Shown piece after piece: positions 6,312 to 54,317 of a stretch of 57,542 bases of DNA. The position numbers were made by a program, and so were the translations under genes. The notes below the pieces were generated by a model. The model did not search any database. It was not told the DNA's origin and saw nothing but the letters and a program-made list of their open reading frames with translations. Positions within the stretch are counted from its first letter, which is position 1, and each line of letters begins with the position of its first letter. The DNA comes from Candidatus Anderseniibacteriota bacterium (lineage in GTDB: Bacteria > Patescibacteriota > Andersenbacteria > UBA10190): positions 155,520 through 213,061 of the forward strand of contig JAIOOW010000002.1 of NCBI GenBank assembly GCA_021414205.1, in the 5' to 3' direction.

Positions 6312-7655
6312 TTAGTCCTCAATCACGTCTCGATCCAAATCATTTGACGGAAGCGAACGCTGACCCAACAAGCGGCCAACAAGCTCTTCCAGCTCTTTAT
6401 CGTTTGTTGCGCGAAGCACAACTTCAAACGCTTTCTTATCTTCCTCGTATTTAATATGCGTAAGGTATCCAAATCGCTCTTCAATCATAGGCGTATACTT
6501 GAGCGAAAGCGGATGGCGATCTTTAAACCGATTGCGCGGAGTTGAAACTCCCGTCACCATTGTTCGCTGAATTCTGCGAGCGCGGAGCTCTGCTTTTCGA
6601 ACCGTAAGCCCTTCGTCGACCAAATGATGGTAGAATCGAATCTGCTTTTCCGGATCCGGAATCATTAAGATTGCCTTTGCATGTCCCATCGTAATTTTTC
6701 CTTCCACCATTCCGCGCTGAATTTCAGCAGGGAGTTGTAATACGCGGACAATATTCGTTACACCAACACGACTCTTCCCTACTCGCTGACCAATTTCTTC
6801 ATGAGTCAATCCGTAATCTTCGTTAAGCTGCTTATACGCAAGCGCTTCTTCAATCGGATTCAAGTTTTCTCGCTGAATATTTTCAACAAGAGCAAAGACT
6901 AATCGAGATTGATCAGAACTTACATCCTTTCGAATAACGCATGGGACTTTCTCCCATTTAAGAGCCTTTGCAGAACGCAAGCGTCGCTCTCCCGCAATCA
7001 ATTCAAACTTATCGTTATCTAGCCTGCGAACAACCAGCGGCTGAAGAATTCCGTTCTTTGAAATGGATTCTTGCAAATCTTTTAATTCATTTTCATCAAA
7101 CGACCTTCGTGGTTGGAGTGGATTAATCGTAATATCTGCAACGGGGATATGACGAACAGTATCTTCGTGCCGATCCCAGATACCGTCGTACTTCATTGCC
7201 TGAGCAACTAAAACTTCAGATACTTCATCATCGTCATCCTCTTCCGTCTCCTCTGGACGAGGTACTGCTGGCTCTGGCATTACCGGCTCTTCTATTCTTT
7301 CTTCAACAGCCGGCTCTTCGGTAATTTCAACCTCCTCAACCTCTACTTCAGCAGGCCCTTCTTCAATATCTTCGTCTTTTTCTTCTACTACAACCTTTGT
7401 AACAGAAACTTTTTCCGCCATTTCCTCCTCGTGCACGTGAGCATCCTCTGGATCCAAGAAAATAGGAGTTACCAGGGGTTTTTTTGGCGCAGCAATCACT
7501 TCGTCGGCATCATCCGGCTGTAAATCTCGAAAATCGCGCACAACGCCCGTTTCTTCATTCAATTCCTCCATGCTATCAATTTGCTCAAGCACATCGTCAG
7601 CCGATTGATTCTCGCGGCGTGAAATAAGTGATGCTAGTCCTCGTCCAAGTCCCAT
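6312..7655 (-). CDS. parB: ParB/Spo0J partition protein with a long acidic N-terminal insertion
   Basis: GLGRGLASLI, NPLQPRRSF, GILQPLVVR, IAGERRLR, ENIQRENLNPIEEA, HTH. Confidence 0.95.
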   Translation of the reverse strand: MGLGRGLASLISRRENQSADDVLEQIDSMEELNEETGVVRDFRDLQPDDADEVIAAPKKPLVTPIFLDPEDAHVHEEEMAEKVSVTKVVVEEKDEDIEEGPAEVEVEEVEITEEPAVEERIEEPVMPEPAVPRPEETEEDDDDEVSEVLVAQAMKYDGIWDRHEDTVRHIPVADITINPLQPRRSFDENELKDLQESISKNGILQPLVVRRLDNDKFELIAGERRLRSAKALKWEKVPCVIRKDVSSDQSRLVFALVENIQRENLNPIEEALAYKQLNEDYGLTHEEIGQRVGKSRVGVTNIVRVLQLPAEIQRGMVEGKITMGHAKAILMIPDPEKQIRFYHHLVDEGLTVRKAELRARRIQRTMVTGVSTPRNRFKDRHPLSLKYTPMIEERFGYLTHIKYEEDKKAFEVVLRATNDKELEELVGRLLGQRSLPSNDLDRDVIED

Positions 7656-8662: not shown

Positions 8663-9199
8663 ATGACAGAAGAAGAGCGCAAAAATACCATTATTCTAGT
8701 TAATGAGCACGATGAGCAAGTAGGAACTGGCGAAAAGCTAGCGGTTCATCAACAAGGTCTCTTGCACCGGGCATTTTCCGTACTTACTTACAATCAAAAA
8801 GGCGAGATGCTGCTACAGCAGCGAGCGCTTACGAAATACCACTCAGGAGGCTTATGGACGAACGCATGCTGTGGGCATCAGCTTCTAAATGAACCAACAG
8901 ATGACGCTCCGCACAGAAGATTACAAGAAGAAATGGGATTTAATACGGCCCTTACCAAACAAACAGAATTTATCTATAACGTTCCCGTTCCACCCAATTT
9001 AATCGAACATGAATATTTACACGTCTATTCAGGAACATATGATGGCCAAGTTATTCCAAATCCAGAGGAAGCTATGGCATACAGATGGATTTCAAAAGAA
9101 GGTCTAGAGAAAGAAATTGCTGACCATCCCGAAACGTTCACTCCTTGGTTTTTAATTATTGCGAAGAAAGGATTACTGTTTCCTCATGACAACCGCTAA
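8663..9199 (+). CDS. idi: Isopentenyl-diphosphate delta-isomerase type 1 (NUDIX fold)
   Basis: HQQGLLHRAFS, LLQQRA..KYHSGGLWTNACCGH, RRLQEEMG, EHEYLHV, FTPWF. Confidence 0.95.
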   Translation: MTEEERKNTIILVNEHDEQVGTGEKLAVHQQGLLHRAFSVLTYNQKGEMLLQQRALTKYHSGGLWTNACCGHQLLNEPTDDAPHRRLQEEMGFNTALTKQTEFIYNVPVPPNLIEHEYLHVYSGTYDGQVIPNPEEAMAYRWISKEGLEKEIADHPETFTPWFLIIAKKGLLFPHDNR

Positions 9200-10007
9200 A
9201 TTTCAGAAAACGATTCTTGATTGGCATAAAGACAACAAGCGAAACTTACCGTGGCGAAATACAAAGAATCCGTATCGAATTATGGTTTCGGAAATCATGC
9301 TCCAGCAAACTCAAGTTTCTCGAGTACTACCGAAATACAAAGAATTTTTGCAAGCATTCCCAGATATCAAAACGCTTGCCGAGTGCAACGATGCAGATTT
9401 ATTAGCGATATGGTCGGGCTTGGGGTATTGGCGCCGAGCACGATTCTTAAAAGAAGCATGCAAAGCAATTATTAAAGATCATCATGGCAAATTCCCGAAA
9501 GACATCAAAACCCTGCTAACGCTTCCCGGAATCGGGCCGTATACCGCGGGCGCAATTTCCTGTTTCGCATTCGGAAACACGGAAGCATTTATTGATACAA
9601 ATATTCGCAGAGTATATTTATATTTCTTCTTCAAAGATAAAACGGATATTCATGATGCAGATATTCTAAAAATCGCCAAAAAAGCAATCCCCAACGACGA
9701 TCCCGCAAATTGGCATTGGGCATTATTTGATTACGGAGCATTAGTGTTGAAAGATAAGAAGATAAACAAGAAAAGCCGACACTACGCGAAACAAAGCACA
9801 TTTAAAGGCTCGTTTCGATCGTACCGGGCAAAGTTAATGCGCACCTTACTAGCTCAGCCAGAAAAAAGCATGCCAAAAACTGCAGCCTTAGACTTCTTAG
9901 AAGATACACTCCGAGAAGATGAGCAAGATTACTCTGCAAGCGAAATACTAAAATCTCTCGTACAAGATAACCTCGTAAAGCAAAACAGCACTCGTATTTT
10001 TCTATAA
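9186..10007 (+). CDS. mutY: A/G-specific adenine glycosylase, short form without Fe-S cysteines
   Basis: RNLPWRNT.NPYRIMVSEIMLQQTQV, WSGLGYWRRAR, LPGIGPYTAGA (HhH), DTNIRRV. Confidence 0.9.
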   Translation: MTTAKFQKTILDWHKDNKRNLPWRNTKNPYRIMVSEIMLQQTQVSRVLPKYKEFLQAFPDIKTLAECNDADLLAIWSGLGYWRRARFLKEACKAIIKDHHGKFPKDIKTLLTLPGIGPYTAGAISCFAFGNTEAFIDTNIRRVYLYFFFKDKTDIHDADILKIAKKAIPNDDPANWHWALFDYGALVLKDKKINKKSRHYAKQSTFKGSFRSYRAKLMRTLLAQPEKSMPKTAALDFLEDTLREDEQDYSASEILKSLVQDNLVKQNSTRIFL

Positions 10008-12797: not shown

Positions 12798-15191
12798 TTA
12801 ACACACAATGTTTAATAACTTGTTCGGCACATAGATTATTTTTCTCACTTCTTTTCCATCAATAAACTTCGTGACGTTTTCTTGCGCCATCGCCATTTTC
12901 TCAACATCAGCTTGCATCGCATCCCGCGTTACTGCAATTTCTGCTCGGACCTTCCCATTTACTTGCACCGGAATAATAATATTCTGCTCCTCTAGATACT
13001 GCTCATCTGCAATCGGCCACGATGCTTGAGAAATTCCATCTGCATGTCCAAGTTGTTCCCATAATTCTTCGCACACATGTGGAGCGTATGGCGAAATAAG
13101 CAAGATAAAATTTTCAAGACTTTTTCTAGAAATTATTCTTTCTTTTTCGAAGACGTTTAAGCATTCCATCATGGTTGAAATTGCCGTATTAAATCTGAAT
13201 GCAGCTGTATCTTCCGTAACCTTCTTAATTGCTTTATTAATTGCGAACAACACTGCTTCGGAGTCATCATGCTCTTGCCCAATACTTGCCTGCGCCAGTC
13301 TCCATAATCGCTCAATAAATTTCCTCGGCCCGCTCATACTTGCAGTGCTCCATGCGACTGTTTGGTTAAACGGACCCATAAACATTTCATAGATGCGAAG
13401 CGTGTCAGCACCTACCGATGCTACGATGTCATCCGGATTTACTACATTACCAAAGCGCTTACTCATCTTCCTACCATCTTCAGCAAGAATTAACCCAACA
13501 TTCTCAAGGTGCATAAATGGCTCTGGCGTACTTACTAATCCAAGCTCATACAAAAAGATATGCCAAAAGCGCGCATATATTAAATGGCGCGTTGCATGCT
13601 CGGCTCCACCAACATACACATTAACAGGCATCCATGCCTTTTCTTTTTCAGCACTAACAAGTGCTTGAGTATTTTTCGGATCAATATAACGCAAGTAATA
13701 CCAACTAGACCCTGCCCACTGCGGCATGGTGTTCGTTTCCCGCTTAGCAGGCTTTCCGCACTTCGGACACGTTGTATTCACCCAGTCAATAATTAAAGCT
13801 AGCGGCGATTCTCCTGTTCCCGCAGGCTCATAATGCTCCACTTCAGGCAATACGACAGGCAATTGATCCTCGGGTACAGGAACTATGCCATCTTCTTCGC
13901 AATGAATAATCGGAATCGGCTCTCCCCAGTATCGCTGACGAGAAAATACCCAATCGCGAAGCTTGTAATTCGTTGTCGTTTTCCCAAATTTCTCTGTTAT
14001 TTTCTTTTTTGCTTCTTCCGCATTTATTCCGGTAAATTCCCCGGAGTCAATCAACACTCCGCGATCATCAACAACATTCTTAATGGGCAACTCATACTTT
14101 TTCGCAAATTCGAAATCGCGCTCATCGTGAGCAGGCACCGCCATAATTGCACCAGTACCATAATGAGCCAAGACGTAATCCGCAACATACATAGGAATTT
14201 TTTCTCCAGTCGCAGGATTAACCGCCCACACTCCTCCTAGCTTCACTCCTGTTTTTTCTTTTGTCGCATCCGTACGATCAATCTCAGTCTTCTTTGCAGC
14301 CTGCATCACATACCTGCGCACTTCATCTTTATTTTCCAAAACATCATGCGTATCATCAATAGCTAATTGTACCCACAAATGTTCTGGAGATAGTACAAAA
14401 TACGTACAACCGAATAACGTATCTGGTCGCGTTGTGAATACAGGAATTAACCCGGGTTTCGCACCCTCTTTTTTAAACTCGACAGGAAAACCAATCTGTG
14501 TACCTTCAGATTTTCCAATCCAATTCTTCTGAGATTCAATAATCGATTTTGGCCACGGAAGACCTTCTAAGCCAGCAAGCATTTTTTCTGCATACTCAGT
14601 AATTTTGAGCGCCCATTGGCGCATCGGACGTTTTTCAACTACCGATCCGCATCGCTCACATTTGCCTTGTTCTACATCTTCGTTTGCTAATCCAGTTTGG
14701 CATGACGGGCACCAATTGATCGGCTCGAAGCTTTCATACGCCAATCCTTTTTTATATAACTGCAAAAAGATCCATTGCGTCCATTTGTAATACTCCGGAT
14801 CAGTAGTATTTATTTCTCGGTTCCAATCATACGAAAATCCAATATTCTGTAATTGCTCTTTAAACCGAGCGATATTTTTTTCAACGGCAACACGAGGATG
14901 CACCTTATTTTTAATCGCATAATTTTCTGCAGGCAACCCAAATGCATCCCACCCCATCGGGTGAAGCACATCATACCCCTGCATTCTCTGCATACGAGAA
15001 AATACGTCCGTGGCAATATAGCCCTTCGGATGGCCCACATGAAGCCCTTCTCCGGATGGGTATGGAAACATGTCAAGAACGTAGCTTTTCTTCGCCCCGG
15101 GCAATTCAGGAGTCGTAAACGTCCCTTCCTTCACCCAGCGCTGTTGCCACTTTTTCTCTATTTTTGCGTGATTATATGCGTTATCTGCCAT
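12798..15191 (-). CDS. leuS: Leucine--tRNA ligase
   Basis: MFPYPSGEGLHVGH (HIGH), KMSKR, editing-domain GTGAIMAVPAHDERD. Confidence 0.99.
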   Translation of the reverse strand: MADNAYNHAKIEKKWQQRWVKEGTFTTPELPGAKKSYVLDMFPYPSGEGLHVGHPKGYIATDVFSRMQRMQGYDVLHPMGWDAFGLPAENYAIKNKVHPRVAVEKNIARFKEQLQNIGFSYDWNREINTTDPEYYKWTQWIFLQLYKKGLAYESFEPINWCPSCQTGLANEDVEQGKCERCGSVVEKRPMRQWALKITEYAEKMLAGLEGLPWPKSIIESQKNWIGKSEGTQIGFPVEFKKEGAKPGLIPVFTTRPDTLFGCTYFVLSPEHLWVQLAIDDTHDVLENKDEVRRYVMQAAKKTEIDRTDATKEKTGVKLGGVWAVNPATGEKIPMYVADYVLAHYGTGAIMAVPAHDERDFEFAKKYELPIKNVVDDRGVLIDSGEFTGINAEEAKKKITEKFGKTTTNYKLRDWVFSRQRYWGEPIPIIHCEEDGIVPVPEDQLPVVLPEVEHYEPAGTGESPLALIIDWVNTTCPKCGKPAKRETNTMPQWAGSSWYYLRYIDPKNTQALVSAEKEKAWMPVNVYVGGAEHATRHLIYARFWHIFLYELGLVSTPEPFMHLENVGLILAEDGRKMSKRFGNVVNPDDIVASVGADTLRIYEMFMGPFNQTVAWSTASMSGPRKFIERLWRLAQASIGQEHDDSEAVLFAINKAIKKVTEDTAAFRFNTAISTMMECLNVFEKERIISRKSLENFILLISPYAPHVCEELWEQLGHADGISQASWPIADEQYLEEQNIIIPVQVNGKVRAEIAVTRDAMQADVEKMAMAQENVTKFIDGKEVRKIIYVPNKLLNIVC

Positions 15192-15212
15192 AAATAGCAG
15201 TATACACAACTT

Positions 15213-16496
15213 TTATTGCCCGTATATAACTTTTCTCGCAGCCTCTATCCTGCGTTTCACCTCTTTTTCAAAACCCTCATCGCCTGGTTCGTAATAGATA
15301 TTTTTCTGAATAGAATTTGGGCGATACTGCTGTTCAACTACATGCCCGGGGAAATCGTGCGGGTATTTGTAACCAACGCCTTTTCCAAATTGTTTTAAAT
15401 CCTCAATTGGCGCATTAACCACATTACCAGGCGGAGCATCGTTGCCGTGCGTTTCCACATCTTGCTTTGCGGCATTCATTGCCTTATATACCGAATTACT
15501 TTTCGGAGCCGCTGCTAAGTAACATGCGGCGTGAGCTAGTGCGAATTCCGCTTCCGGCAGCCCAATCCACATCAGCGCCTGGCTTGCTGCTGCAATAAGC
15601 ATAAGCGCATGGGGATCCGCATTGCCAATGTCTTCAGATGCAAAGATAAGCATGCGACGCACAATAAATTTTGGATCTTCACCAGATGCTAACATGCGGA
15701 ATAAATAAAATAATGCAGCGTCGGCATCCGACCCTCTCAAGCTTTTTATAAACGCAGAAATAGTGTCGTAATGAACATCGCCCGCCTTATCGTAGTGCAT
15801 TGCACTGCCATGAGCTGCCGCTTGAATGTCTTTTAATGCAATTTTGCCCTTCTTTTTTCCTGCAATAATTCTCTCAAGAATATTTAATGCCCGCCGAGCA
15901 TCGCCTCCGGATCGCTGAGCAATAGCATTCAGACTGTCTTTTTCAATACTGAGCACAGGATACCCTGCAAGCGCATGACTAATAATTTTTTTAATATCTT
16001 TATCCTGCAGAATCTCAAGCCGCACTACCTGCGCGCGAGATATCAAAGCAGATACCACTTCGAAATACGGATTTTCCGTTGTTGCGCCAATCATAATCAC
16101 CAAACCTTCTTCAACGGCGGGCAACAAAACATCTTGCTGGCTTTTATTAAACCGATGGATCTCATCAACAATTAACACTGTAGATCTTTTTATTTTCTGC
16201 CACTCGCGTGCGCGCGATAATACATCACGCAAGTCTTTTACTCCCGCAGTCACTGCGCTTACCCGCTCAATTGCGGCATCCATATTGCGTGCAATAAGTT
16301 CTGCAAGTGTCGTCTTCCCGACTCCCGGAGACCCCCATAATATAAGCGACCCAACCTTCCCCTGCTCTATGGCTTTTCGTAACGGCTTTCCCTTTCCGAG
16401 CACCTCAGCATGCCCCACAAAATCATCCAGACTCTTCGGTCGCATAAGCGCAGCCAGTGGCTTATACAATGCTTCTTGTTTGCGTTCTGTTCGCAT
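15213..16496 (-). CDS. rarA: Replication-associated recombination protein A (RarA/MgsA)
   Basis: PLAALMRP, GSPGVGKTT, DEIHRFNKSQQD, GATTENPYF, AFIKSLRGSD, ASEDIGNADP. Confidence 0.97.
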   Translation of the reverse strand: MRTERKQEALYKPLAALMRPKSLDDFVGHAEVLGKGKPLRKAIEQGKVGSLILWGSPGVGKTTLAELIARNMDAAIERVSAVTAGVKDLRDVLSRAREWQKIKRSTVLIVDEIHRFNKSQQDVLLPAVEEGLVIMIGATTENPYFEVVSALISRAQVVRLEILQDKDIKKIISHALAGYPVLSIEKDSLNAIAQRSGGDARRALNILERIIAGKKKGKIALKDIQAAAHGSAMHYDKAGDVHYDTISAFIKSLRGSDADAALFYLFRMLASGEDPKFIVRRMLIFASEDIGNADPHALMLIAAASQALMWIGLPEAEFALAHAACYLAAAPKSNSVYKAMNAAKQDVETHGNDAPPGNVVNAPIEDLKQFGKGVGYKYPHDFPGHVVEQQYRPNSIQKNIYYEPGDEGFEKEVKRRIEAARKVIYGQ

Positions 16497-43821: not shown

Positions 43822-44943
43822 ATGATGAGATGGATCGCATGCGCCCTGTTACTGGTATCGGCGAATACCTTGCTGGCCCACCCCGGCCACAAGCATGCCA
43901 AAGGAGAACGGATCGTGATGATCAATGAAAACTTCGCCGAGGAGCAGAAGACAGACGGCCAAGGCGACTGGGTATTCAAATACCGATCAGACCTCTCGAC
44001 CGTTCCGGTGGAAGAACGATTTCTCTTGGCTGCCCACGGCGGCTTTGCCACTGACCCCGCTACGAACATCACCTACTTCGGACTGCCAGGCACCGGGGTC
44101 ATTCAAATCTCTCCGGACCTCACTTCGATGAAGGTCATTGGCGGGGACACGGGCCTGTTTAATCCTCAAGGAGAATTGTGGAACTACCACAATACTTGCA
44201 TTGTGGATCATGCGGGCACGAAGTATCTAGGACTTGCCGGAAATAACTCGGGTCGCGTCTGGGTGGTTGGGTTAGATGGAAAAATCCACAACACCTTCAC
44301 CGCGCCGCCCGAAGGCAATGGCCAGGGCGCAACCGATCTTGTCCAAATTCCCAAAAGCGGAAATCTCAAGATCACGTACGGATATGGTGATAACTTCATC
44401 TACGAGGCATCGCCATTTGCAGGCGACTTGAACCAAGGCGTTTGGAATCCAGGACGCTTCGGCGGCAAAGGACCGCGCGAAAAAACAGGCGTATTCAACA
44501 CCCCGCACGGCATCGCGCTGTTTCCAGGAGGAGAAAGGATTGCAATCGCCGACCGCGGATATGGCCGGGTTCAGATTACAAACCTGGAAGGTGTGGTAGA
44601 AACTGTGTGGGATCTCAAGAGAGATGACGGAAAGTGGCCGCTCCCCTGCGATGTCAATTTTTCTCCAGACGGCACGCTTGCCGTTGTAGGCAACCTGGAT
44701 GACGCTAATGGGAAACCGGCAAACTTCCTCATCGTGGATACAAAAACTGGCAAGACGCTTTCGAGCGTCACACCAGCAACGCTTGGTGTTCCCAACAGTC
44801 GCCACATCCACAATACAACATTCCGCTACGTGGACATCGGCGACGGTAAAACGGAAGTGTACGTACTGTGCTTGTTCTGGAACCCGGGAGGTTACGGAGT
44901 ATTCCAGAAAGTCCAGCCATGGCACAAACCGGCGACGACATAA
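43822..44943 (+). CDS. Secreted NHL-type beta-propeller protein in a GC-rich islet
   Basis: Signal peptide, HPGHKH, blades with HGGF, YHNT, TPHGI, IADRG..RVQ, PCDV and IHNT. Confidence 0.8.
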   Translation: MMRWIACALLLVSANTLLAHPGHKHAKGERIVMINENFAEEQKTDGQGDWVFKYRSDLSTVPVEERFLLAAHGGFATDPATNITYFGLPGTGVIQISPDLTSMKVIGGDTGLFNPQGELWNYHNTCIVDHAGTKYLGLAGNNSGRVWVVGLDGKIHNTFTAPPEGNGQGATDLVQIPKSGNLKITYGYGDNFIYEASPFAGDLNQGVWNPGRFGGKGPREKTGVFNTPHGIALFPGGERIAIADRGYGRVQITNLEGVVETVWDLKRDDGKWPLPCDVNFSPDGTLAVVGNLDDANGKPANFLIVDTKTGKTLSSVTPATLGVPNSRHIHNTTFRYVDIGDGKTEVYVLCLFWNPGGYGVFQKVQPWHKPATT

Positions 44944-45458: not shown

Positions 45459-46154
45459 ATGAAAACACCTCTTGTAAGCGTTCTTGTTGCTGCGTATAAC
45501 TCCGAAGATTTTATAGAAGACGCCCTACAAAGCGTGTGGGACCAAACATACAAGAATTACGAAATTATTGTGGTGAATGACGGATCAACTGATACAACAG
45601 CATCAAAACTGAACCAATGGAAACATAGAATAACTATTATAGAGAAAGAAAATGGCGGCATTGCGAGTGCTCGCAATGCAGGACTCGCCGCAACAAAAGG
45701 CAATTTTATCGCAATTCTTGATGCTGATGATGTATGGCTGCCAACAAAACTTTCCGAACAAATGGAATATTTTCGGAGCCACCCCGCTGTAAGCATTGTT
45801 TTTTCTTTAGCTCAAAACGTATTGCACAAAGATCTTGTGCATAGGAATAATATATCGCCAAAGCCATTCCCAATCATAGCGGCTCATATACCCGGAAACT
45901 GCATGGTGAGAAAAAATATATTCAATCAGATCGGATATTTTAACGAATCCATAATTTTAGGAGAGTTTGCAGAATGGTACGGCAAAGCATTGAACGCAAA
46001 TATCAAGATGGGCTGCGTTGATTCCCTGCTACTCCTTCGGCGCATTCACGGAAATAACATTGGAATCAAGGAAAAGAAGCGCTTTAACGATTACCTCCAT
46101 ATTTTAAAAAGAAAGATCGATGCCCAAAAAGCGCCTGCAGAATCGTCCGACTAA
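45459..46154 (+). CDS. GT2 family glycosyltransferase
   Basis: VSVLVAAYN, VNDGSTD, NGGIASARNAG, LDADD.W.P.KL. Confidence 0.95.
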   Translation: MKTPLVSVLVAAYNSEDFIEDALQSVWDQTYKNYEIIVVNDGSTDTTASKLNQWKHRITIIEKENGGIASARNAGLAATKGNFIAILDADDVWLPTKLSEQMEYFRSHPAVSIVFSLAQNVLHKDLVHRNNISPKPFPIIAAHIPGNCMVRKNIFNQIGYFNESIILGEFAEWYGKALNANIKMGCVDSLLLLRRIHGNNIGIKEKKRFNDYLHILKRKIDAQKAPAESSD

Positions 46155-47264
46155 TTGAGAAAATCTCAGCGCCACAATCGCAGGAACTGCCATAAGCGAC
46201 GGAGTTTGGCATAAAAATTTCAAGAATCTGCCAACTTGCTTCATACTGTTCTCGATAGTATATGGCCGGGATAGCGATTTCACATACCGCCACCAATACA
46301 GCTCAATTGCCGGAATAATTCGAGTATATGTATCTTTCGATTCCAAATACGTCATTCGCCGATCAGGAAGCGAAACGGGGGTGTTTTGCAACTGATCAAG
46401 AACCCATTCGGGAATATCAACAAACGATTGATCGCTTAAGTATCGCAATGCAACACCGACCGATAGCGTCGTACGCATGCGTTGAGAAAGATCCACGACA
46501 AAACGCCAATCTACTTGCCCGGAACGAATAATAAATACCGCATCAAGTATCCACTTTAACTGAATACCATCTTTTCCATTCCAACCCAGTGCATGAGCGC
46601 ACACATGGACTACATGGTAACTAGAAGAAAGCGTCATCGCCTTGCGATTCTGAATACCGATATGTTGAGTACCCTCGGCAAGCATCGCCCAATCGTCATC
46701 TTGTAAATACCCGTGCAATAGATGGCAATGCATATCCAAAATTCCCGACGAAGTATACAAACTCATCTCATGAAAAAAGTCTGACTGAAACAATTCGATA
46801 GCAGTATGCGTGCGATAGGCCGGATAGCGCTTGCATATCAGACCGATTGCTTCTGAGAAGCGATGCGCTGGAATCATCATATCTACATCATCGATTGAGC
46901 GCGCACCGATATCATTTCCATAATATAAAAAAATAAACGCCGCCCCCTTAAGCAGCATAAAAGGAATACTATTACTATCGAGCACATCCATTACTTTTTC
47001 TGCCTCATTAAGCAGTAAAGAATTTTTAAGCCACGAAGCCTGATACGCATTTTTACATACCGTAATCCATGCATCTTCCGGAAGAAGTCGCAGGAGCTTC
47101 CTATATGCAAACGGGAATAGCCGTAGGCTTCCATGGTCTAAATCCTCATAGTTGCCAGCAACAGCCTTCCACTGATTCCACAACGCAGAAAACTGATCAT
47201 CCGGAGCAAGCAGTGCCCGAATAAGCAGCCCCTGTGTCGCACTCGGAAATACAAATATGCTCAT
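46104..47264 (-). CDS. Nucleotidyltransferase (NTP_transf_5-like, as found in lasso-peptide clusters)
   Basis: LLKGAA...YY.......RSIDDVDMMIP, DMH, HVCAH, W..D. Confidence 0.85.
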   Translation of the reverse strand: MSIFVFPSATQGLLIRALLAPDDQFSALWNQWKAVAGNYEDLDHGSLRLFPFAYRKLLRLLPEDAWITVCKNAYQASWLKNSLLLNEAEKVMDVLDSNSIPFMLLKGAAFIFLYYGNDIGARSIDDVDMMIPAHRFSEAIGLICKRYPAYRTHTAIELFQSDFFHEMSLYTSSGILDMHCHLLHGYLQDDDWAMLAEGTQHIGIQNRKAMTLSSSYHVVHVCAHALGWNGKDGIQLKWILDAVFIIRSGQVDWRFVVDLSQRMRTTLSVGVALRYLSDQSFVDIPEWVLDQLQNTPVSLPDRRMTYLESKDTYTRIIPAIELYWWRYVKSLSRPYTIENSMKQVGRFLKFLCQTPSLMAVPAIVALRFSQLVGRFCRRFLGIDLSF

Positions 47265-48856
47265 AGAGTGATTATGCGCCCGTCAGAAATTTCATACCGT
47301 GCATCAGCGATCGCAATCAAGCTCTGGTCATGAGTAATGCAAATGATTGTTGTTGTGGGTAATAAAGACTTCAGCCGAGCAAATAATACATTGCGATATT
47401 CCTCATCTAAATGATTTGTCGCCTCATCTAGGAAAAGAATCTTTGGTCTTCGCTCCAATGCGCGAGAAATCATCAGGCGCTGCTTCTCACCTCCCGAAAG
47501 AGACGCCGTGTCTCTCGTACCATCTATAAAAAAATCGCTGCGACCCAACACAGAGACTTGCCCCCCGCCTAATCCGTACTGCTCGTTCTCTTTTACGCTC
47601 GCATTCAAAAAAATCGCTTCTTGAGAAACCACTCCTATCTGCCGGCGATACGATGAAATATCAATAGTTCTCAAGCTTGCACCGTCAATAAAAATATCTC
47701 CCGCATCAGGCACCAACAATCCGAGTATTGCGAAAAGAAGCGTCGTTTTCCCTGCTCCATTCTTCCCCTCAACAACAGATAATTCTCCTGCCTTAAATAC
47801 CGCGTTCGCATTCCGTAGGATCGTATCACCTCCAACAGAAAGAGATATATTTCGTAAAGAAATTTCTCCCTTGACCTCGTGGTGCACCGTACCGGAATAT
47901 GGCGTTTCTTGGGAAATAGCGAGCACCTGCTCAATGCGAGATAATGCGTCATGCAACATAACTACATGAGGCCACCCCATAAACAGCGTTGCAATCTGCG
48001 CTCGCAACAGAGAAAACCCTACGAAAAACGAAACAACCTGACTGATAGAAAGCTCTCCTCGGGAACTTAAAAAGAAGCCAAAGCCCAGCAAAACAATACC
48101 GAATACTGCCCCTACCCCTTCTTGAAACAATTGCAATATCGTCTGCTGGTACGCGAGCTTGCCTCCGGACTGCCTGACATTACCTACAAGATCTTCATAC
48201 GCGCTATCCTCTGCCCGCTCAGCTGTTTGCATCTTTACCAGCTCCCATGCGCGAATCGTAAATCCGACGCGTTCTTCAAATGAAACCATGGCTCGGCGGA
48301 AACGCTCCTGCAATGTCGACACTTTATTTCTCGAATACACTAAAGCTATAAGACCGAGCGGGAGCACGCCGCAAGAAATAAGAAATAAGACCGGGGAAAG
48401 CACAAAGAGCGCACCCAGCAATACAACCATCGATATGATCGCCGGCAATACTTGGCTTAATCCAATAGTTAATGCGAGATCCAATCGATACGTATCATTC
48501 ACAATCACGTCCTTGAGCCCTTCCGCATATTGCGCCCATGCGGATCGATGATGACTTTTCACAATTGTACGCACTGCATCGTGTTGCACCTTTTGAACCC
48601 CCTCTTTTACTACCTTAACTATCCCAAACCGGCTCATTGCGGAAAGGGCGATATCGACACTGCTCACCAAAAGCAGTGCTACGAGCGCACTTGCGATGCT
48701 ATCCCACCGAGAGTTAGGAACGCGATCAATAATGAATCGCAATATCAGCGGTATCGGTAACACCATAAATCCATGAATAACGGCGAGCAAGACATACCAT
48801 GCAAGCCGAGCTTTCTGCACAGAAAAATAACGAGACAATGTTTTTACAGTATTCAT
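47261..48856 (-). CDS. ABC exporter, fused permease/ATPase, without a C39 peptidase domain
   Basis: N-terminal TM domain; GKNGAGKTT, LSGGEKQR, LFLDEATNHLD, ITH. Confidence 0.95.
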   Translation of the reverse strand: MNTVKTLSRYFSVQKARLAWYVLLAVIHGFMVLPIPLILRFIIDRVPNSRWDSIASALVALLLVSSVDIALSAMSRFGIVKVVKEGVQKVQHDAVRTIVKSHHRSAWAQYAEGLKDVIVNDTYRLDLALTIGLSQVLPAIISMVVLLGALFVLSPVLFLISCGVLPLGLIALVYSRNKVSTLQERFRRAMVSFEERVGFTIRAWELVKMQTAERAEDSAYEDLVGNVRQSGGKLAYQQTILQLFQEGVGAVFGIVLLGFGFFLSSRGELSISQVVSFFVGFSLLRAQIATLFMGWPHVVMLHDALSRIEQVLAISQETPYSGTVHHEVKGEISLRNISLSVGGDTILRNANAVFKAGELSVVEGKNGAGKTTLLFAILGLLVPDAGDIFIDGASLRTIDISSYRRQIGVVSQEAIFLNASVKENEQYGLGGGQVSVLGRSDFFIDGTRDTASLSGGEKQRLMISRALERRPKILFLDEATNHLDEEYRNVLFARLKSLLPTTTIICITHDQSLIAIADARYEISDGRIITL

Positions 48857-49533
48857 TTCGCTTTTTTAACAATCAAGGAAAGAAGTTCCCTATTATAGTT
48901 TGCGCGCTCCGATAGGCTCAAAATATGGGATGCATTTTTTTGATGCACTCTTTTTTTCCATAGCAATTGTTCCACCGTGCCAATCTCATACCCAGCCTTC
49001 AGAACGCGCGCTACCCAATCAGTATCGCTGGCGATACTATATTGCGGATCAAACGCTCCTACGTATGAGAATAATTGCTTTCGTATCAGCCAGGCGGAAG
49101 GGCTCAGGTTTCGATGCATAACATCCAAAAAACCGTCGCGAACCCATCCTGGCTTTTGAACACCATTTTCTAAAAACCCTTCGCATAATGGCACACACAT
49201 GTGAATATCTGGATGCTTTTCCAGATATTCAACTTGCGCAGAAATTTTCCTAGGGAGAAATATATCATCATTATCTAAAAAAGAAATATACTCTCCGCGT
49301 GCGGCAGCAAAGCCCTTATTCCTCGCCGATGCAACGCCGCTATTTTTTTGATCAATGATGCGAATATATTCTGCATATGTTCTCAATATATCAGCCGACG
49401 CATCTGTAGACCCATCATTAACCGCAATAATCTCGAGGGGAGCATAGTCTTGCGCAAGAATGCTTTCTATCGCCTGCTCTAAAAAATGCTCAGCATTGTA
49501 TACCGGAATAACAACGGAAACGAGCGGGTTCAT
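48853..49533 (-). CDS. GT2 family glycosyltransferase
   Basis: VSVVIPVYN, VNDGSTD, NSGVASARNKG, FLDNDD. Confidence 0.95.
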   Translation of the reverse strand: MNPLVSVVIPVYNAEHFLEQAIESILAQDYAPLEIIAVNDGSTDASADILRTYAEYIRIIDQKNSGVASARNKGFAAARGEYISFLDNDDIFLPRKISAQVEYLEKHPDIHMCVPLCEGFLENGVQKPGWVRDGFLDVMHRNLSPSAWLIRKQLFSYVGAFDPQYSIASDTDWVARVLKAGYEIGTVEQLLWKKRVHQKNASHILSLSERANYNRELLSLIVKKAK

Positions 49534-50231
49534 AGCGCGCTATTTTTTAAAGATAAAATCTCGCGCGCTCCTCGGCGCTTGAGCGATGCACCCAGCACGC
49601 GAAGCAACGACGTATCACCAGATTTTAGCGCATGTGTTGTGTTCGTATCATGGATGCGATAAAAGCTTACAGCATCAGGAATCTTTGCAATTACCGCCCC
49701 TACTTCTACCGCCCTAAAGAACCAATCGACATCCTCATGGAGCAGATATTTCTCGTTCAGCATTCCGATTTCTTCAAATGCGCTTGCGCGAATTACGGCA
49801 GCCCCCAAAGACGGCAACAACTCCCCCTTGCCTAAAAAGTTTTCTCGAGAAGGCGCGCCGCCCGACACAAATCGCTGCACATGACCCATTGCAATCTGAA
49901 GGGCGGGATTTTTTTCATATTCAGAGAGCAGCAGCGCCACATGATGTTCCGTCCAAATATCATCAGCATCCAAAAAGGCCACATACTCTCCGCGCGCTCT
50001 GCGCAATCCCGCATTTCGAGCTGATGCCGGACCTTTATTTTCCTGCGTGATATATACAATGTTTTCTATCCATGATTCAAGCGCCTGCCTAATATCGTCG
50101 GTAGAGCCGTCATTAATAACAATAATTTCATACGGCAACTTCCCCATTGCAATTTCTATGCTGGCAAGAGCATCGCCAATATATTGAGAGGCATTATACA
50201 CAGGAACAACAACACTTATCATCGGGGCCAT
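49530..50231 (-). CDS. GT2 family glycosyltransferase
   Basis: ISVVVPVYN, INDGSTD, NKGPASARNAG, FLDADD, EDVDW. Confidence 0.95.
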   Translation of the reverse strand: MAPMISVVVPVYNASQYIGDALASIEIAMGKLPYEIIVINDGSTDDIRQALESWIENIVYITQENKGPASARNAGLRRARGEYVAFLDADDIWTEHHVALLLSEYEKNPALQIAMGHVQRFVSGGAPSRENFLGKGELLPSLGAAVIRASAFEEIGMLNEKYLLHEDVDWFFRAVEVGAVIAKIPDAVSFYRIHDTNTTHALKSGDTSLLRVLGASLKRRGAREILSLKNSAL

Positions 50232-50247
50232 ATAGTAAAATAGTATC

Positions 50248-51243
50248 TTATAATTCTTCAATAAACACAGATAGCTTCTCACTTATTTCTTTCTCATCTT
50301 CGCTTAATTGCAACGAGAATGATGGCACACGCTGTACGAGCTCAGCCAATACCGCAAACGAATCATTGTGCGTATCTTCCGGCAGTAGTTGAAATATCGT
50401 ACTGGGTGCTAATGCGAGCAGAGCATGCGCAGAATGTATCCTGCGCCAAGATGTTTCTTGAGCATGCGCAATAACGGGCAACACTATTGCACGCACTTCC
50501 AACTGTTGTGCGATTTTTCCGCTATATGCTTCGTGTAAAAACATCACTTCTTTTTCCCCGATAACTTCCAAGTCATGATGTTTAATTTTTGCGGAACTGT
50601 ACAAGCTGATCGCAGTTGGGACTGGGTCCATTTTTAATAACACATAATCATCGCTCGCATACACAAGATCATCTTGATGCACAACAGCAAGAGCCGTGCT
50701 CGTTTTTCCGCTCCCCCCTTTGCCCACAAGCACTATTCCTTTTTTATCTTTTCCGATGCTTGCCCCGTGTATCAAACTCAAGCCATGGCGCTGAAAAAAC
50801 CAATGGAAAATGATGCGAAACGGCACAGCGACTTCATACCAAGGAATGCGCGTATCATCTTCTACCCAAAATACCGCCCGCTTGTTCATACCATCAAAAA
50901 AAGAAAGGGTCGGCATACTTTCATTCACCCCCGGATTTACCATACACATCATTTGCTCTGTTTGGAGTCGTTGAACTTGGTCTCCAAATGAATGCTTGGG
51001 CCAATCAAAAAATTCTATTCGAGCACCGGAATGTAGCTCTATACGCAAATCGACCGCACCTTCGCTAGGCGCTGCAACATGCGCCAACGCTCTCGTCATA
51101 TTGATAAGAAAATCCTCAGATCCTGACACAACCTCTATACGCAAACCATCCACTTCAAATAGCCGCGAATGCAGGCGCGATAGCTGTTTATAAAAAAATT
51201 CTTGCTCCAATCTCTCAATAAACTCGTCCGAGTCAGCACTCAT
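50248..51243 (-). CDS. HPr-kinase-related P-loop kinase (lasso-peptide-kinase-like)
   Basis: LIHGAS, VGKGGSGKTST (Walker A), YASDD, AL..LAPSTIFQL. Confidence 0.82.
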   Translation of the reverse strand: MSADSDEFIERLEQEFFYKQLSRLHSRLFEVDGLRIEVVSGSEDFLINMTRALAHVAAPSEGAVDLRIELHSGARIEFFDWPKHSFGDQVQRLQTEQMMCMVNPGVNESMPTLSFFDGMNKRAVFWVEDDTRIPWYEVAVPFRIIFHWFFQRHGLSLIHGASIGKDKKGIVLVGKGGSGKTSTALAVVHQDDLVYASDDYVLLKMDPVPTAISLYSSAKIKHHDLEVIGEKEVMFLHEAYSGKIAQQLEVRAIVLPVIAHAQETSWRRIHSAHALLALAPSTIFQLLPEDTHNDSFAVLAELVQRVPSFSLQLSEDEKEISEKLSVFIEEL

Positions 51244-51252
51244 ATGCGAGCA

Positions 51253-51690
51253 TCACTTCACTTCCTGCATCGGCCAACTACCCTCACCCACATCATGAAT
51301 TGGATCAAGTAATAGCAACTCTCTCATGTCTTCATGCTTTTTAAGTGCTGGCTCTTCGTAATCTGTATCCGTTTCCGCAGATTGCTGCATAATTGCAGAC
51401 GCAGCATTATCGCCATTACTTGCGCGAATAAGCCCTTCTTGTACCAACCGTACAATAAAAGCACCCACATCCCGCTCAGCACGCTTTTCATCAATACTGT
51501 ATCGCCTACGTATTTCAGAATATATTATCTGCTCACTTAGCCCTTGCTCCAGATATTCCCAAATAACTGCCCCCGTACGATTCGCATGGTAATAACATCC
51601 GCTTTCCAAATGAATAGCAACAAGCTCCCCATCTATCACTTCGGCTACCACGCTTGGCTTACACACAGCATATATTGCGGAATCTGACAT
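51253..51690 (-). CDS. PqqD/RRE-domain protein with a C-terminal leader-plus-core-like tail
   Basis: VVAEVIDGELVAIHLESGCYYHANRTGAVIWEYL...FIVRLVQEGLI (PqqD fold) followed by YEEPALKKHEDMRELLLLDPIHDVGEGSWP. Confidence 0.88.
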   Translation of the reverse strand: MSDSAIYAVCKPSVVAEVIDGELVAIHLESGCYYHANRTGAVIWEYLEQGLSEQIIYSEIRRRYSIDEKRAERDVGAFIVRLVQEGLIRASNGDNAASAIMQQSAETDTDYEEPALKKHEDMRELLLLDPIHDVGEGSWPMQEVK

Positions 51691-51772
51691 AGTAAGAAAA
51701 AGCATACAAGACCCAGGTTCTGCAGACAAGCAATCCAGCGACCCCTCCGCTCTCGCAATAATACAGTATGTA

Positions 51773-52003
51773 TTACTTTAAATGACTGGCAAGAAATCCA
51801 AACGCGCTACCCAGCAATGGCAAACTCGTAAGCTTATTGAGCACAACTACAACAATCGTTACAATTATGCCCGCACCAATAGCAGTACCAAAACCAGTAG
51901 CAATTCCCCGGACAAACGTAGCATGCCACTGCATACTTTTATTCAGCTTGCGCACTTGGTTCGTAAGGGCGTCTAATTCTTTTGTTCGAGATGAATCATT
52001 CAT
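51773..52003 (-). CDS. DUF5665-like small membrane protein
   Basis: FVRGIATGFGTAIGAGII...L..LPLLG pattern. Confidence 0.7.
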   Translation of the reverse strand: MNDSSRTKELDALTNQVRKLNKSMQWHATFVRGIATGFGTAIGAGIIVTIVVVVLNKLTSLPLLGSAFGFLASHLK

Positions 52004-52197
52004 ATAGTCAATTTTCTGCGTATTTCGTTCAACGCCTCAGCATCCGATTTTCCCTCCCCTTTTACGGCTCGATCATCTTTTGTAAATAGCCAAAACGTAT
52101 ATAGCTCTCCATTCAAGCGATAATCATTATGAACGGCTACCATCCACCCCGCTGCGCGAATGTCATCGGGAACACTAGCATTAACCGCAGTCTTCAT
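52000..52197 (-). CDS. Small hypothetical protein
   Basis: 65-aa ORF with a 4-nt overlap into the next gene and a protein-like composition. Confidence 0.65.
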   Translation of the reverse strand: MKTAVNASVPDDIRAAGWMVAVHNDYRLNGELYTFWLFTKDDRAVKGEGKSDAEALNEIRRKLTI

Positions 52198-53381: not shown

Positions 53382-54158
53382 TTACTTAATAATAACAAGC
53401 TTTGCAGTTACGTTGCTATTCGTGTTATTCCACACCCCGTATACCCGCACGCTCGATCCGGCTGTTATGCTAGAGAACGAAACGACCGCTCCTTTGTGCT
53501 TGTAGATTGTTGAGCTATTCGTATTAATAGTCTGCACTCCTCGATGATTGCTTTGAAGTGCAAAACTTGATCCGCTCACTGATTGCACCGTTCCATCGAA
53601 CTGACCATGGCGCGCCTGAAGAGAAAGATCCTTAATTGTTGTTGCCGTAATGCTCGTGCTCGTAGGAATTACTCCCTGTACTTGCAATACGTCTCCGATT
53701 TGCATATCAGAAACTTTCATCGAAGCATTAAATCTTCGAATAGTTTTTACATTGCTCGCATCAACAGAATACGTCGTGCCTTTTGAAAGCAAACTAATTG
53801 TGGTTCCATTTATTCCAGTAATTGTTCCGGTAACCCAGCCTCTTTTTGTGGCGTTAATGATTATCGTCTCGGCTGCTACATTTTTATTCGTTTTGTCCCA
53901 AACTCCCTTTATAGTCATTTGATCTCCAACCATGATATCTGAGAACGTCTCTGTTTTACCCTTCATAGTAATCACGGTACCGCTCGACACATTAATAGTC
54001 TGCTGATAACGATTCTTGGTTTGCAATATAAAACTATCCGTTCCGATAGATTGCACGAACCCCGAGAAAGTACCCGTGGTTGTACTTGCAAAAGCAGCTG
54101 TTGGCAACACAAGCGCTAAGGCTAATGCAACAACTAAACTTTTTACGTATGCGTGCAT
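53382..54158 (-). CDS. Secreted protein with three DUF5666-like repeats
   Basis: Signal peptide; three repeats of G.V.SI.G..F.L......TI......T..........I.VG..V.V.G.W.......A..I. Confidence 0.8.
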   Translation of the reverse strand: MHAYVKSLVVALALALVLPTAAFASTTTGTFSGFVQSIGTDSFILQTKNRYQQTINVSSGTVITMKGKTETFSDIMVGDQMTIKGVWDKTNKNVAAETIIINATKRGWVTGTITGINGTTISLLSKGTTYSVDASNVKTIRRFNASMKVSDMQIGDVLQVQGVIPTSTSITATTIKDLSLQARHGQFDGTVQSVSGSSFALQSNHRGVQTINTNSSTIYKHKGAVVSFSSITAGSSVRVYGVWNNTNSNVTAKLVIIK

Positions 54159-54317
54159 AGAGATATTTTTTACGAATAAATTATATATACCAGATGGGTA
54201 TTTATATATTGAGCATACCTTCGGATGCAAAATAGTTCATGAGCATTTTATGAAGATATAAAAAAAGTCCGATTGAAGAGAGTAACCCTTCGCACGGACT
54301 TACAAAGAACATTGTTT

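Follow-up and report, generated by a model that had tools for sequence, protein, structure and literature searches.

The window analysed here is a 57,542-nt stretch of contig JAIOOW010000002.1 (positions 155,520 to 213,061), assembled from a freshwater metagenome and assigned to a Candidatus Anderseniibacteriota bacterium. On its minus strand, at 51253..51729, lies a gene for a small protein in which a recognition element (RRE) of the kind that serves peptides that are made by the ribosome and modified after translation (RiPPs) is joined by a linker to a conserved C-terminal tail. This RRE-tail architecture is a real and widespread new variant of the RRE-leader paradigm, and it is unreported in the searchable literature. 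The first half of the tail is very probably a built-in leader that fills the groove of its own RRE, as judged from structural models and covariation. For the second half, we lean tentatively towards a role as the substrate or scaffold on which a kinase, family-2 glycosyltransferases (GT2s) and a nucleotidyltransferase (NTase) act.

We propose that the protein is a self-leadered RRE, consisting of a PqqD domain like that of lasso-peptide B1 proteins, a flexible linker and what appears to be a former precursor peptide. The segment [FYW]xxPxLxK[YFH] would fill the protein's own leader groove as an added β-strand, as the separate leaders of lasso and linear polyphosphorylated peptide (LPP) systems do, and the docked segment would hold x[DE]LLLLDPIH[DE]VDExGWP where a core peptide is normally presented. 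There, the second half could meet a co-transcribed HprK-like kinase, GT2s that are sometimes fused to that kinase, and an NTP_transf_5 protein, such that a 16-kDa protein might serve an LPP-like phospho-glycosylation pathway as recognition element and as substrate or scaffold alike. In loci with an exporter, the product would leave through an MsbA-like ATP-binding cassette (ABC) transporter. The LPP pathway of Bacillota is the closest known system to the window cluster; its clusters encode the precursor LppA, the RRE LppB, the HprK-like kinase LppK, the NTP-transferase LppN, the MsbA-like exporter LppD and the signal-peptidase-like leader peptidase LppS (Popov et al., Nat Commun 2026, PMC13381572).

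Layout, conservation and spread of the RRE-tail family

A preliminary description of the window had read an open reading frame (ORF) of 158 aa, and this frame, which begins at TTG 51729, was confirmed, as was its end: the last 35 residues are YEEPALKKHEDMRELLLLDPIHDVGEGSWPMQEVK and map to 51256-51360. The real start is likely ATG 51690, which is used in database gene calls and by homologues and gives a protein of 145 aa, 13 residues shorter. Between 51690 and 51729 the start is ambiguous, with GGAGG ~14 nt upstream of TTG 51729 and a further ATG at 51705 that would give 150 aa; the 150-aa and 145-aa forms are the ones backed by homologues. Residue numbers refer here to the 145-aa form, and adding 13 gives the 158-aa numbering of the preliminary description. 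The parts of the gene are as follows.

51418..51675, minus strand: PqqD/RRE winged-helix domain, residues 6-91, closest to lasso-peptide B1 proteins
51361..51417, minus strand: linker, low-complexity and variable, residues 92-110
51325..51360, minus strand: leader-like half of the tail, Y111-M122 (YEEPALKKHEDM), consensus [FYW]xxPxLxK[YFH][TSE]DM, predicted to lie in the leader groove of its own RRE
51271..51324, minus strand: enzyme-facing half of the tail, R123-P140 (RELLLLDPIHDVGEGSWP), consensus x[DE]LLLLDPIH[DE]V[DG][ED]xGWP
51253..51270, minus strand: variable C-terminal end (MQEVK) and stop codon

The N-terminal domain matches Pfam PqqD (PF05402) over residues 35-101 of the 158-aa form (E 3.1e-15; 56.7 bits against a gathering cutoff of 23.4). 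Its best two NCBIfam matches are the lasso B1 chaperone models NF033536 and NF033530, both below cutoff (49.7 vs 80 bits, the score for lasso_PqqD_Bac, and 48.6 vs 70 bits). AlphaFold2 models the domain with a predicted local distance difference test (pLDDT) score of 91-97 as the RRE fold, a winged helix-turn-helix with a three-stranded sheet and three helices, and Foldseek gives the model a target template-modelling score of 0.88-0.90 to TbiB1 (5v1u/5v1v) and 0.89 to 6jx3_B. Sequence matches in the Protein Data Bank (PDB) are also to RREs of the lasso and LPP types, namely TbiB1 (1e-16), PbaB1 (6e-15), TfuB1 (3.9e-7) and LppB (9x8z; 1.5e-6). At NCBI, family members are labelled just 'PqqD family protein'.

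The tail is set apart from the domain by a linker that carries little conservation, at ~0.4-1.1 bits per column, with a pLDDT of ~60 and a length that varies up to ~55 aa (in P0214). Among 29 homologues (29-86% identity, nearly all 140-164 aa), the tail is near-invariant, its P, L, D, P, I and H residues are invariant and the linker is variable, and a set of 187 non-redundant sequences gives the family motif [FYW]xxPxLxK[YFH][TSE]DMx[DE]LLLLDPIH[DE]V[DG][ED]xGWPxxK. The 29-homologue alignment and the 187-sequence profile agree with the preliminary description both in its layout of RRE, linker and tail and in its expectation that YxxPxL and LLLDPIH...WP are conserved and the linker is not. In the 187-sequence alignment, most tail columns hold 3-4.3 bits each, above most columns of the PqqD domain, and the LLLLDPIH...GWP half is the best-conserved stretch of the protein. 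The filter that selected this set demanded D129, P130 and H132; these residues are also invariant in the unfiltered 29 homologues, and DP[IVL]H is present in 219/219 proteins fetched. At the invariant LLLLDPIH positions every synonymous codon is in use, which places the selection on the protein and not on DNA or RNA, and rules out a nucleotide-level constraint such as an overlapping gene or an RNA structure. The tail has no sequence match in the PDB.

The window's own clade (P0001-P0013) is off consensus at four tail positions, where Tyr119 is replaced by His, Thr/Ser120 by Glu, Asp135 by Gly and Gly138 by Ser, and His35 replaces Ser on the adjacent RRE strand. Glu120 could be a mimic of phospho-Thr or phospho-Ser.

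Searching 1.84 billion cluster representatives (50% identity clusters) with a profile built from the tail alone gave 2,899 matches at E<=1e-3, of which 1,325 have E<=1e-10. Of the matches, the best 150 are mostly 135-165 aa long with the tail at the C-terminus; in every case resolved the tail is C-terminal to a PqqD domain, and the profile finds PqqD-tail proteins only. A scan of one genome per species showed the tail in at least 339 of these genomes, spread over Saccharibacteria, Chlamydiae, Gemmatimonadota, Chloroflexota, Cyanobacteria (Oscillatoria sp. PCC 10802 and Chamaesiphon polymorphus CCALA 037 among them), Acidobacteriota, Planctomycetota, Verrucomicrobiota, Nitrospirota, Proteobacteria, Bacillota and others, bearing out the mention, in the preliminary description, of similar tails in other phyla.

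The tail-profile search also gave 49 proteins of 25-82 aa. We considered whether these are free tail peptides of a split system and rejected this, as the four that lie on long contigs (P0034, P0058, P0055 and P0041) are all frameshift fragments: directly upstream of each, a PqqD domain is encoded in a different frame, and the assemblies concerned are long-read, error-prone and rich in broken genes (L001:8099-8595, L002:9668-10141, L003:9534-9996 and L087:9742-10219; in L003 possibly through a neighbouring transposase). Most of the remaining short tail proteins begin within PqqD helix 3. The databases hold many such C-terminal fragments of 25-90 aa, which are mistakable for free precursor peptides. 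Tail proteins of 180-359 aa were rejected as new domain fusions, being over-extended ORFs, and P0155, with an N-terminus other than PqqD, lies on a 608-bp contig of 0.84x coverage and is uninformative.

The RRE-Finder survey describes RREs as discrete or enzyme-fused and does not mention fusion to a precursor. In the literature outside subscription-only journals, we saw no account of an RRE that is naturally joined to a leader-like peptide of its own, nor of the tail motif.

Predicted binding of the leader-like half by its own RRE

Support for the predicted docking of the first tail half comes from four sources: the fold of the domain, the AlphaFold2 prediction, covariation between tail and domain, and conservation of the groove. 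The B1 structures that the domain model resembles were solved in complex with their lasso leaders. In two AlphaFold2 runs, with 29- and 130-sequence alignments, residues 111-120 reached a pLDDT of 93 and 95, and a β-strand was predicted at 116-119. A DSSP strand requires a partner strand. The tail also aligns gap-free with the LppA leader motif YxxPxVLxHQxI, with Y, P, V/L, H/Y and I/M in register. In the LppB-LppA crystal structure, leader residues -12 to -7 add a strand to the RRE sheet, while Y-16, P-13 and V-11 fill two pockets (PMC13381572). When Y111 is set at -16, the predicted tail strand falls at -11 to -8, inside the register of the LppA strand.

The residues that would line this interface vary together. 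Asp74 is the equivalent of LppB D70, by residue mapping from the LppB sequence match, and in LppB this residue hydrogen bonds with the leader Tyr (PMC13381572). Across the 187 sequences, Asp74 is found in 21/42 members with Tyr at position 111 and in 3/137 with Phe (Fisher 5e-10 for the association of Tyr111 with position 74, Asp and Glu grouped, a P value not corrected for phylogeny). Lys or Arg at 118 likewise covaries with Glu or Asp at 85 on helix 3 (138/141 vs 9/46), and K118-E85 is the top pair between domain and tail by mutual information after average product correction. The covarying states change 11-21 times on a neighbour-joining tree of the other domain columns, so a single inherited event does not account for the covariation. 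In the groove, F78, L82 and L87, which correspond to LppB F74, M78 and L83, are conserved.

Two points count against this picture, in that the covariation statistics carry no phylogenetic correction, and the partner strand and contacts are inferred and not read from the model coordinates. The groove may be filled by the tail of the same chain or, between two chains of a dimer, by that of the partner. The preliminary description had the tail folding back onto its own RRE; the models place the leader half there, by its pLDDT, the strand at 116-119 and the covariation, and leave the LLLLDPIH...GWP half unplaced, with residues 121-145 at a pLDDT of ~45-65. That the second half is undocked on the RRE yet most conserved would suit a segment with a different binding partner.

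The second half of the tail and its partner enzymes

The RRE-tail gene opens a tightly packed minus-strand operon with a kinase, two GT2s, an ABC exporter and an NTP_transf_5 protein, the downstream genes overlapping by 4-35 nt.

50248..51243, minus strand: HprK-like P-loop kinase, beginning 9 nt past the RRE-tail stop, with weak TIGR04352 and Hpr_kinase_C matches
49530..50282, minus strand: family-2 glycosyltransferase
48853..49533, minus strand: second family-2 glycosyltransferase
47261..48856, minus strand: MsbA/NHLP-type ABC exporter half-transporter without a peptidase domain
46104..47264, minus strand: NTP_transf_5 (PF14907) protein of the PsmN/LppN type (Pfam E 8.1e-23)
45459..46154, plus strand: third family-2 glycosyltransferase, convergent with the operon; a like arrangement is seen in L085

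This set of partners recurs. Clustering of the ORFs of 84 loci together with tblastn showed, across the 39 loci whose flanks reach 9 kb or more on each side, a kinase in 38, a GT2 in 38, the NTase in 30 and an ABC exporter in 20. The kinase gene is immediately downstream of the RRE-tail gene in 30/49 loci, and in 11/49 it is fused to a GT2 in a protein of ~600 aa with the GT2 C-terminal (L064, L055, L007, L037, L080, L044, L033, L050, L029, L012 and L011; Pfam-confirmed on L064, 13365-15161), a Rosetta-stone link that suggests phosphorylation and glycosylation on the same substrate. The P-loop and the DD pair are kept in 36 family kinases, and the equivalent DD metal-site pair, D158/D159, is essential in PsmK (PMC6993621); PDB sequence searches gave no informative match for the kinase. 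A Pfam census of 140 ORFs within 7 kb of the gene in 11 loci counted 24 GT2, 11 NTP_transf_5, 5 ABC and 4 GT1 ORFs, with no peptidase, Asn-synthase or transglutaminase families among the 25 most frequent families listed. Four independently annotated loci (L002, L084, L085 and L087) agree on the partner set. Two of these have further genes of their own, L084 a sulfotransferase-like protein and a type I phosphodiesterase (6601-7530, 13985-15355), of which the sulfotransferase recalls paeninodin-type lasso clusters, and L002 a radical S-adenosylmethionine/SPASM pair (L002:16017-17091).

We looked for a separate precursor in 87 related loci. Clustering of their 3,296 small ORFs gave no conserved small-ORF family beyond near-identical cyanobacterial loci, and leader-like [YWF]xxPx[LVIFAM] motifs in other small ORFs were not in excess, with 208 observed vs 212 in shuffles. 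A separate precursor in these loci is rejected on these two grounds. The absence of YxxP from other flanking ORFs, noted in the preliminary description, holds in the window, and no separate precursor was detectable in the 87 loci. A lasso cyclase and B2 protease were not found in the window operon, L002, L084, L085 or L087, the recurrent families of the 84 loci or the 11-locus census, and a signal-peptidase-like gene of the LppS type was neither present in the window operon nor recurrent in related loci. Genome-mining tools that seek a separate precursor beside an RRE will miss or misread these clusters.

The register of the tail indicates where the partner enzymes might act. LppA consists of the leader YxxPxVLxHQxIxFET and a core beginning AQS, and its Ser3 is polyphosphorylated (PMC13381572). 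In the LppA register (Y-16, P-13, V-11, phospho-Ser +3), Ser3 coincides with the invariant Asp129 of Asp-Pro-Ile-His, and in the lasso register (Y-17) the core would begin at L128. In either register, the invariant Leu-Asp-Pro-Ile-His would lie where the partner enzymes act on separate precursors, going by these alignments. The self-substrate reading of the preliminary description, with LLLLDPIHDVGEGSWP modified by the kinase, NTase or glycosyltransferases, is unproven. Its proposed acceptor, Ser151 (S138 in the present numbering), is Gly in 92% of the family and cannot be a conserved acceptor.

The reading of the second half as substrate or scaffold draws on the exclusive fusion of tail and RRE, the lack of any other precursor, the constant partners and the retention of the kinase catalytic motifs. 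In relatives, the kinase polyphosphorylates a Ser just past the leader (PMC13381572), and hexose is added to the phosphate in an NTase-dependent manner (PMC6993621). If the tail is a substrate, the family makes a widespread, conserved, protein-borne phospho-glycosylation product.

Several observations weigh against this reading. In the 187 sequences no Ser or Thr is conserved in the enzyme-facing half, that is, after position 120, and LppK accepts Ser only, S3T and S3Y not being phosphorylated (PMC13381572). Position 120 itself is Thr or Ser in 81% of members, yet it is Glu in the window's clade, which retains the kinase, and an obligatory acceptor role for Thr/Ser120 is unlikely. With 65 genes in 64 loci the core is single-copy, and it is invariant across phyla; most RiPP cores are different, and this one looks as much like a protein-docking motif. 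A protease that could release a product does not recur in the window operon, the annotated loci or the 11-locus Pfam census, and the exporter is in about half of the loci only (20/39).

These points bear most directly on an alternative that we hold to be somewhat less probable, in which the tail is an unmodified adaptor or pseudo-substrate. The leader in cis would stabilize the RRE fold, and the second half would be a fixed docking surface that steers the enzymes to another substrate, e.g., a glycan, a lipid-linked intermediate or an unlinked protein, with the Asp at the phospho-Ser register as an unreactive (phospho)substrate mimic. The position of Asp129 in the acceptor-Ser register and the enzyme-facing half without a conserved Ser or Thr would suit such a role (PMC13381572), and near-total invariance with one copy per locus is typical of interaction motifs. 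A built-in leader would also be useful by itself, because LppB is insoluble without its leader (PMC13381572). Several loci of the family lie amid polysaccharide genes, with UDP-glucose dehydrogenase, epimerases, DegT, GT4 and PglD-like genes in L084 and GT1 and PIG-L genes elsewhere, and the want of a recurring release protease and of an exporter in half of the loci fits an adaptor too. Against it, all characterized relatives of this enzyme set act on an RRE-held peptide (PMC13381572; PMC6993621), an RRE with a role other than peptide presentation is not known, and no alternative substrate gene is conserved in the loci. An adaptor would provide, in nature, the 'leader in cis' so far known from engineering only, and would mean that RiPP machinery had been recruited for glycoconjugate synthesis.

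Returning to the substrate or scaffold reading, a more specific form of it, which we consider unlikely, is a self-priming scaffold. Here a kinase that no longer uses Ser would activate the Asp-Pro-Ile-His, or the nearby Trp-Pro, and on it would be assembled a phospho-glycan or a small conserved molecule, to be released or exported afterwards. If true, the family would have a pan-bacterial product of conserved structure, akin to PQQ or mycofactocin, whose precursor comes with a chaperone of its own, and an HprK-type kinase would have a non-Ser acceptor.

Autoinhibition, named beside scaffolding as the alternative in the preliminary description, is improbable. The tail would hold the groove until a true precursor, distant or too variable to be recognized, displaces it, and the second half would be a latch or timing device. 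The leader half does resemble ordinary lasso and LPP leaders, making competition for the groove physically plausible, and RiPP precursors can be short, variable and distantly encoded; but the 87 loci have neither a conserved small ORF nor leader motifs in excess, a ligand tethered to its site is at high effective concentration and is difficult to displace, the covariation points to selection on the cis interaction itself, and the greater conservation of LLLLDPIH...GWP than of the leader half would be left unexplained. Finally, the C-terminal position of the tail and the ABC exporter within the window operon might suggest an export or sorting signal, or a generic stabilizing extension unrelated to RRE-leader recognition, which is very improbable given that roughly half of the loci have no exporter whereas the tail does not vary, that AlphaFold2 docking and groove covariation argue for leader-type binding, and that the tail matches [Y/W]xxPx[L/V] in spacing and register.

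Relation to known systems and neighbouring genes

The family ties to the newly described LPP and phosphorylated-lasso chemistry. Like the LPP pathway, it combines an RRE that is discrete and of lasso type with an HprK-like kinase, a PF14907 NTase and an MsbA-like exporter, all four in one operon of the window; both systems often lie among glycosyltransferase or polysaccharide genes, LPP clusters often within capsule loci (PMC13381572), neither has a macrolactam cyclase, and the leader motif has the same spacing (Y-16, P-13, V/L-11, H/Y-8 and I/M-5). The differences concern the precursor and its release. In the window family, the leader and 'core' are fused to the RRE C-terminus, whereas the LPP precursor is a separate peptide of 35-200 aa; LPP clusters have LppS, a signal peptidase I of archaeal type, whereas neither an SpI-like nor any other protease recurs in the window family. 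The phospho-Ser (+3) of the YxxPxVLxHQxIxFETxxS precursor is replaced by an invariant Asp, and the 'core' is invariant here and highly variable in LPP. A GT2 is constant in the window family, in some cases kinase-fused, and the family spans many phyla, while LPP is found in Bacillota only.

Phosphorylated lasso peptides share the kinase and NTase, and PsmN is needed for hexose addition to the phosphate (PMC6993621). Compared with the paeninodin/pseudomycoidin type (PadeK/PsmK, PsmN and B1), the window family has a B1-like RRE, the [Y/W]xxPxL motif, an HprK-like kinase that has the DD metal site, and an NTP_transf_5 protein as partner, along with the sulfotransferase-like gene of L084. It differs in having no Asn-synthase-like cyclase and no B2 transglutaminase-like protease (window, 4 annotated loci and 11-locus census), in lacking a C-terminal Ser acceptor and in the fusion of the precursor to B1. 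With three defining features of LPP failing and two of the lasso type, the family is neither, though similar in working.

HPr-rel-A systems (TIGR04352 kinase and TIGR04353 PqqD-family chaperone) also pair a PqqD-family protein with an HprK-related kinase. The window proteins score far below the cutoffs of these models (19.5 vs 35 and 31.4 vs 200 bits), making the window cluster a different family.

Conceptually, the closest precedent is in the borosins (omphalotin OphMA type), in which enzyme and core peptide are one polypeptide and the substrate is a C-terminal extension; here, too, a biosynthetic protein bears its own C-terminal peptide. The borosin partner is a catalytic methyltransferase, whereas that of the tail is a recognition element only, the folds and chemistry are unrelated, and the substrate role is proven in borosins and putative here. 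A leader in cis has been obtained in laboratory constructs that fuse leader to enzyme, e.g., in cyanobactin heterocyclases, giving a permanently 'loaded' recognition site. NHLP/Nif11 long-leader precursors place a whole domain before a short core; none of these leader domains is an RRE or is known to bind its own peptide.

The genes just upstream of the RRE-tail gene are 51773-52003 (minus strand), a 76-aa DUF5665 membrane protein, and 52000-52197 (minus strand), 65 aa with no family match. Their products have no leader motif and do not recur beside the RRE-tail gene elsewhere. The operon is further flanked by 53382-54230 (minus strand), 282 aa with three DUF5666 stretches, and by 43822-44943 (plus strand), 373 aa with a weak NHL-repeat match; neither gene has an evident link to the operon. 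The GC content is ~44% throughout. Oscillatoria sp. PCC 10802 has in its locus another PqqD-family gene, this one without a tail (107 aa; L031:375-698, minus strand), ~9.5 kb upstream of the RRE-tail gene.

Transcription was seen for a close relative of this cyanobacterial locus. In four wetland metatranscriptomes, a single RNA contig of ~0.9-1.8 kb, ~94% identical to L031, spans the RRE-tail gene and the kinase (L031:9887-11515). Its depth was 10-22, vs 0-9 for most downstream genes, a crude measure in which DNA carry-over is possible, and the assembled contigs show flat depth across the two genes. They adjoin far more abundant transcripts at 9003-9755 and ~15552-15785.

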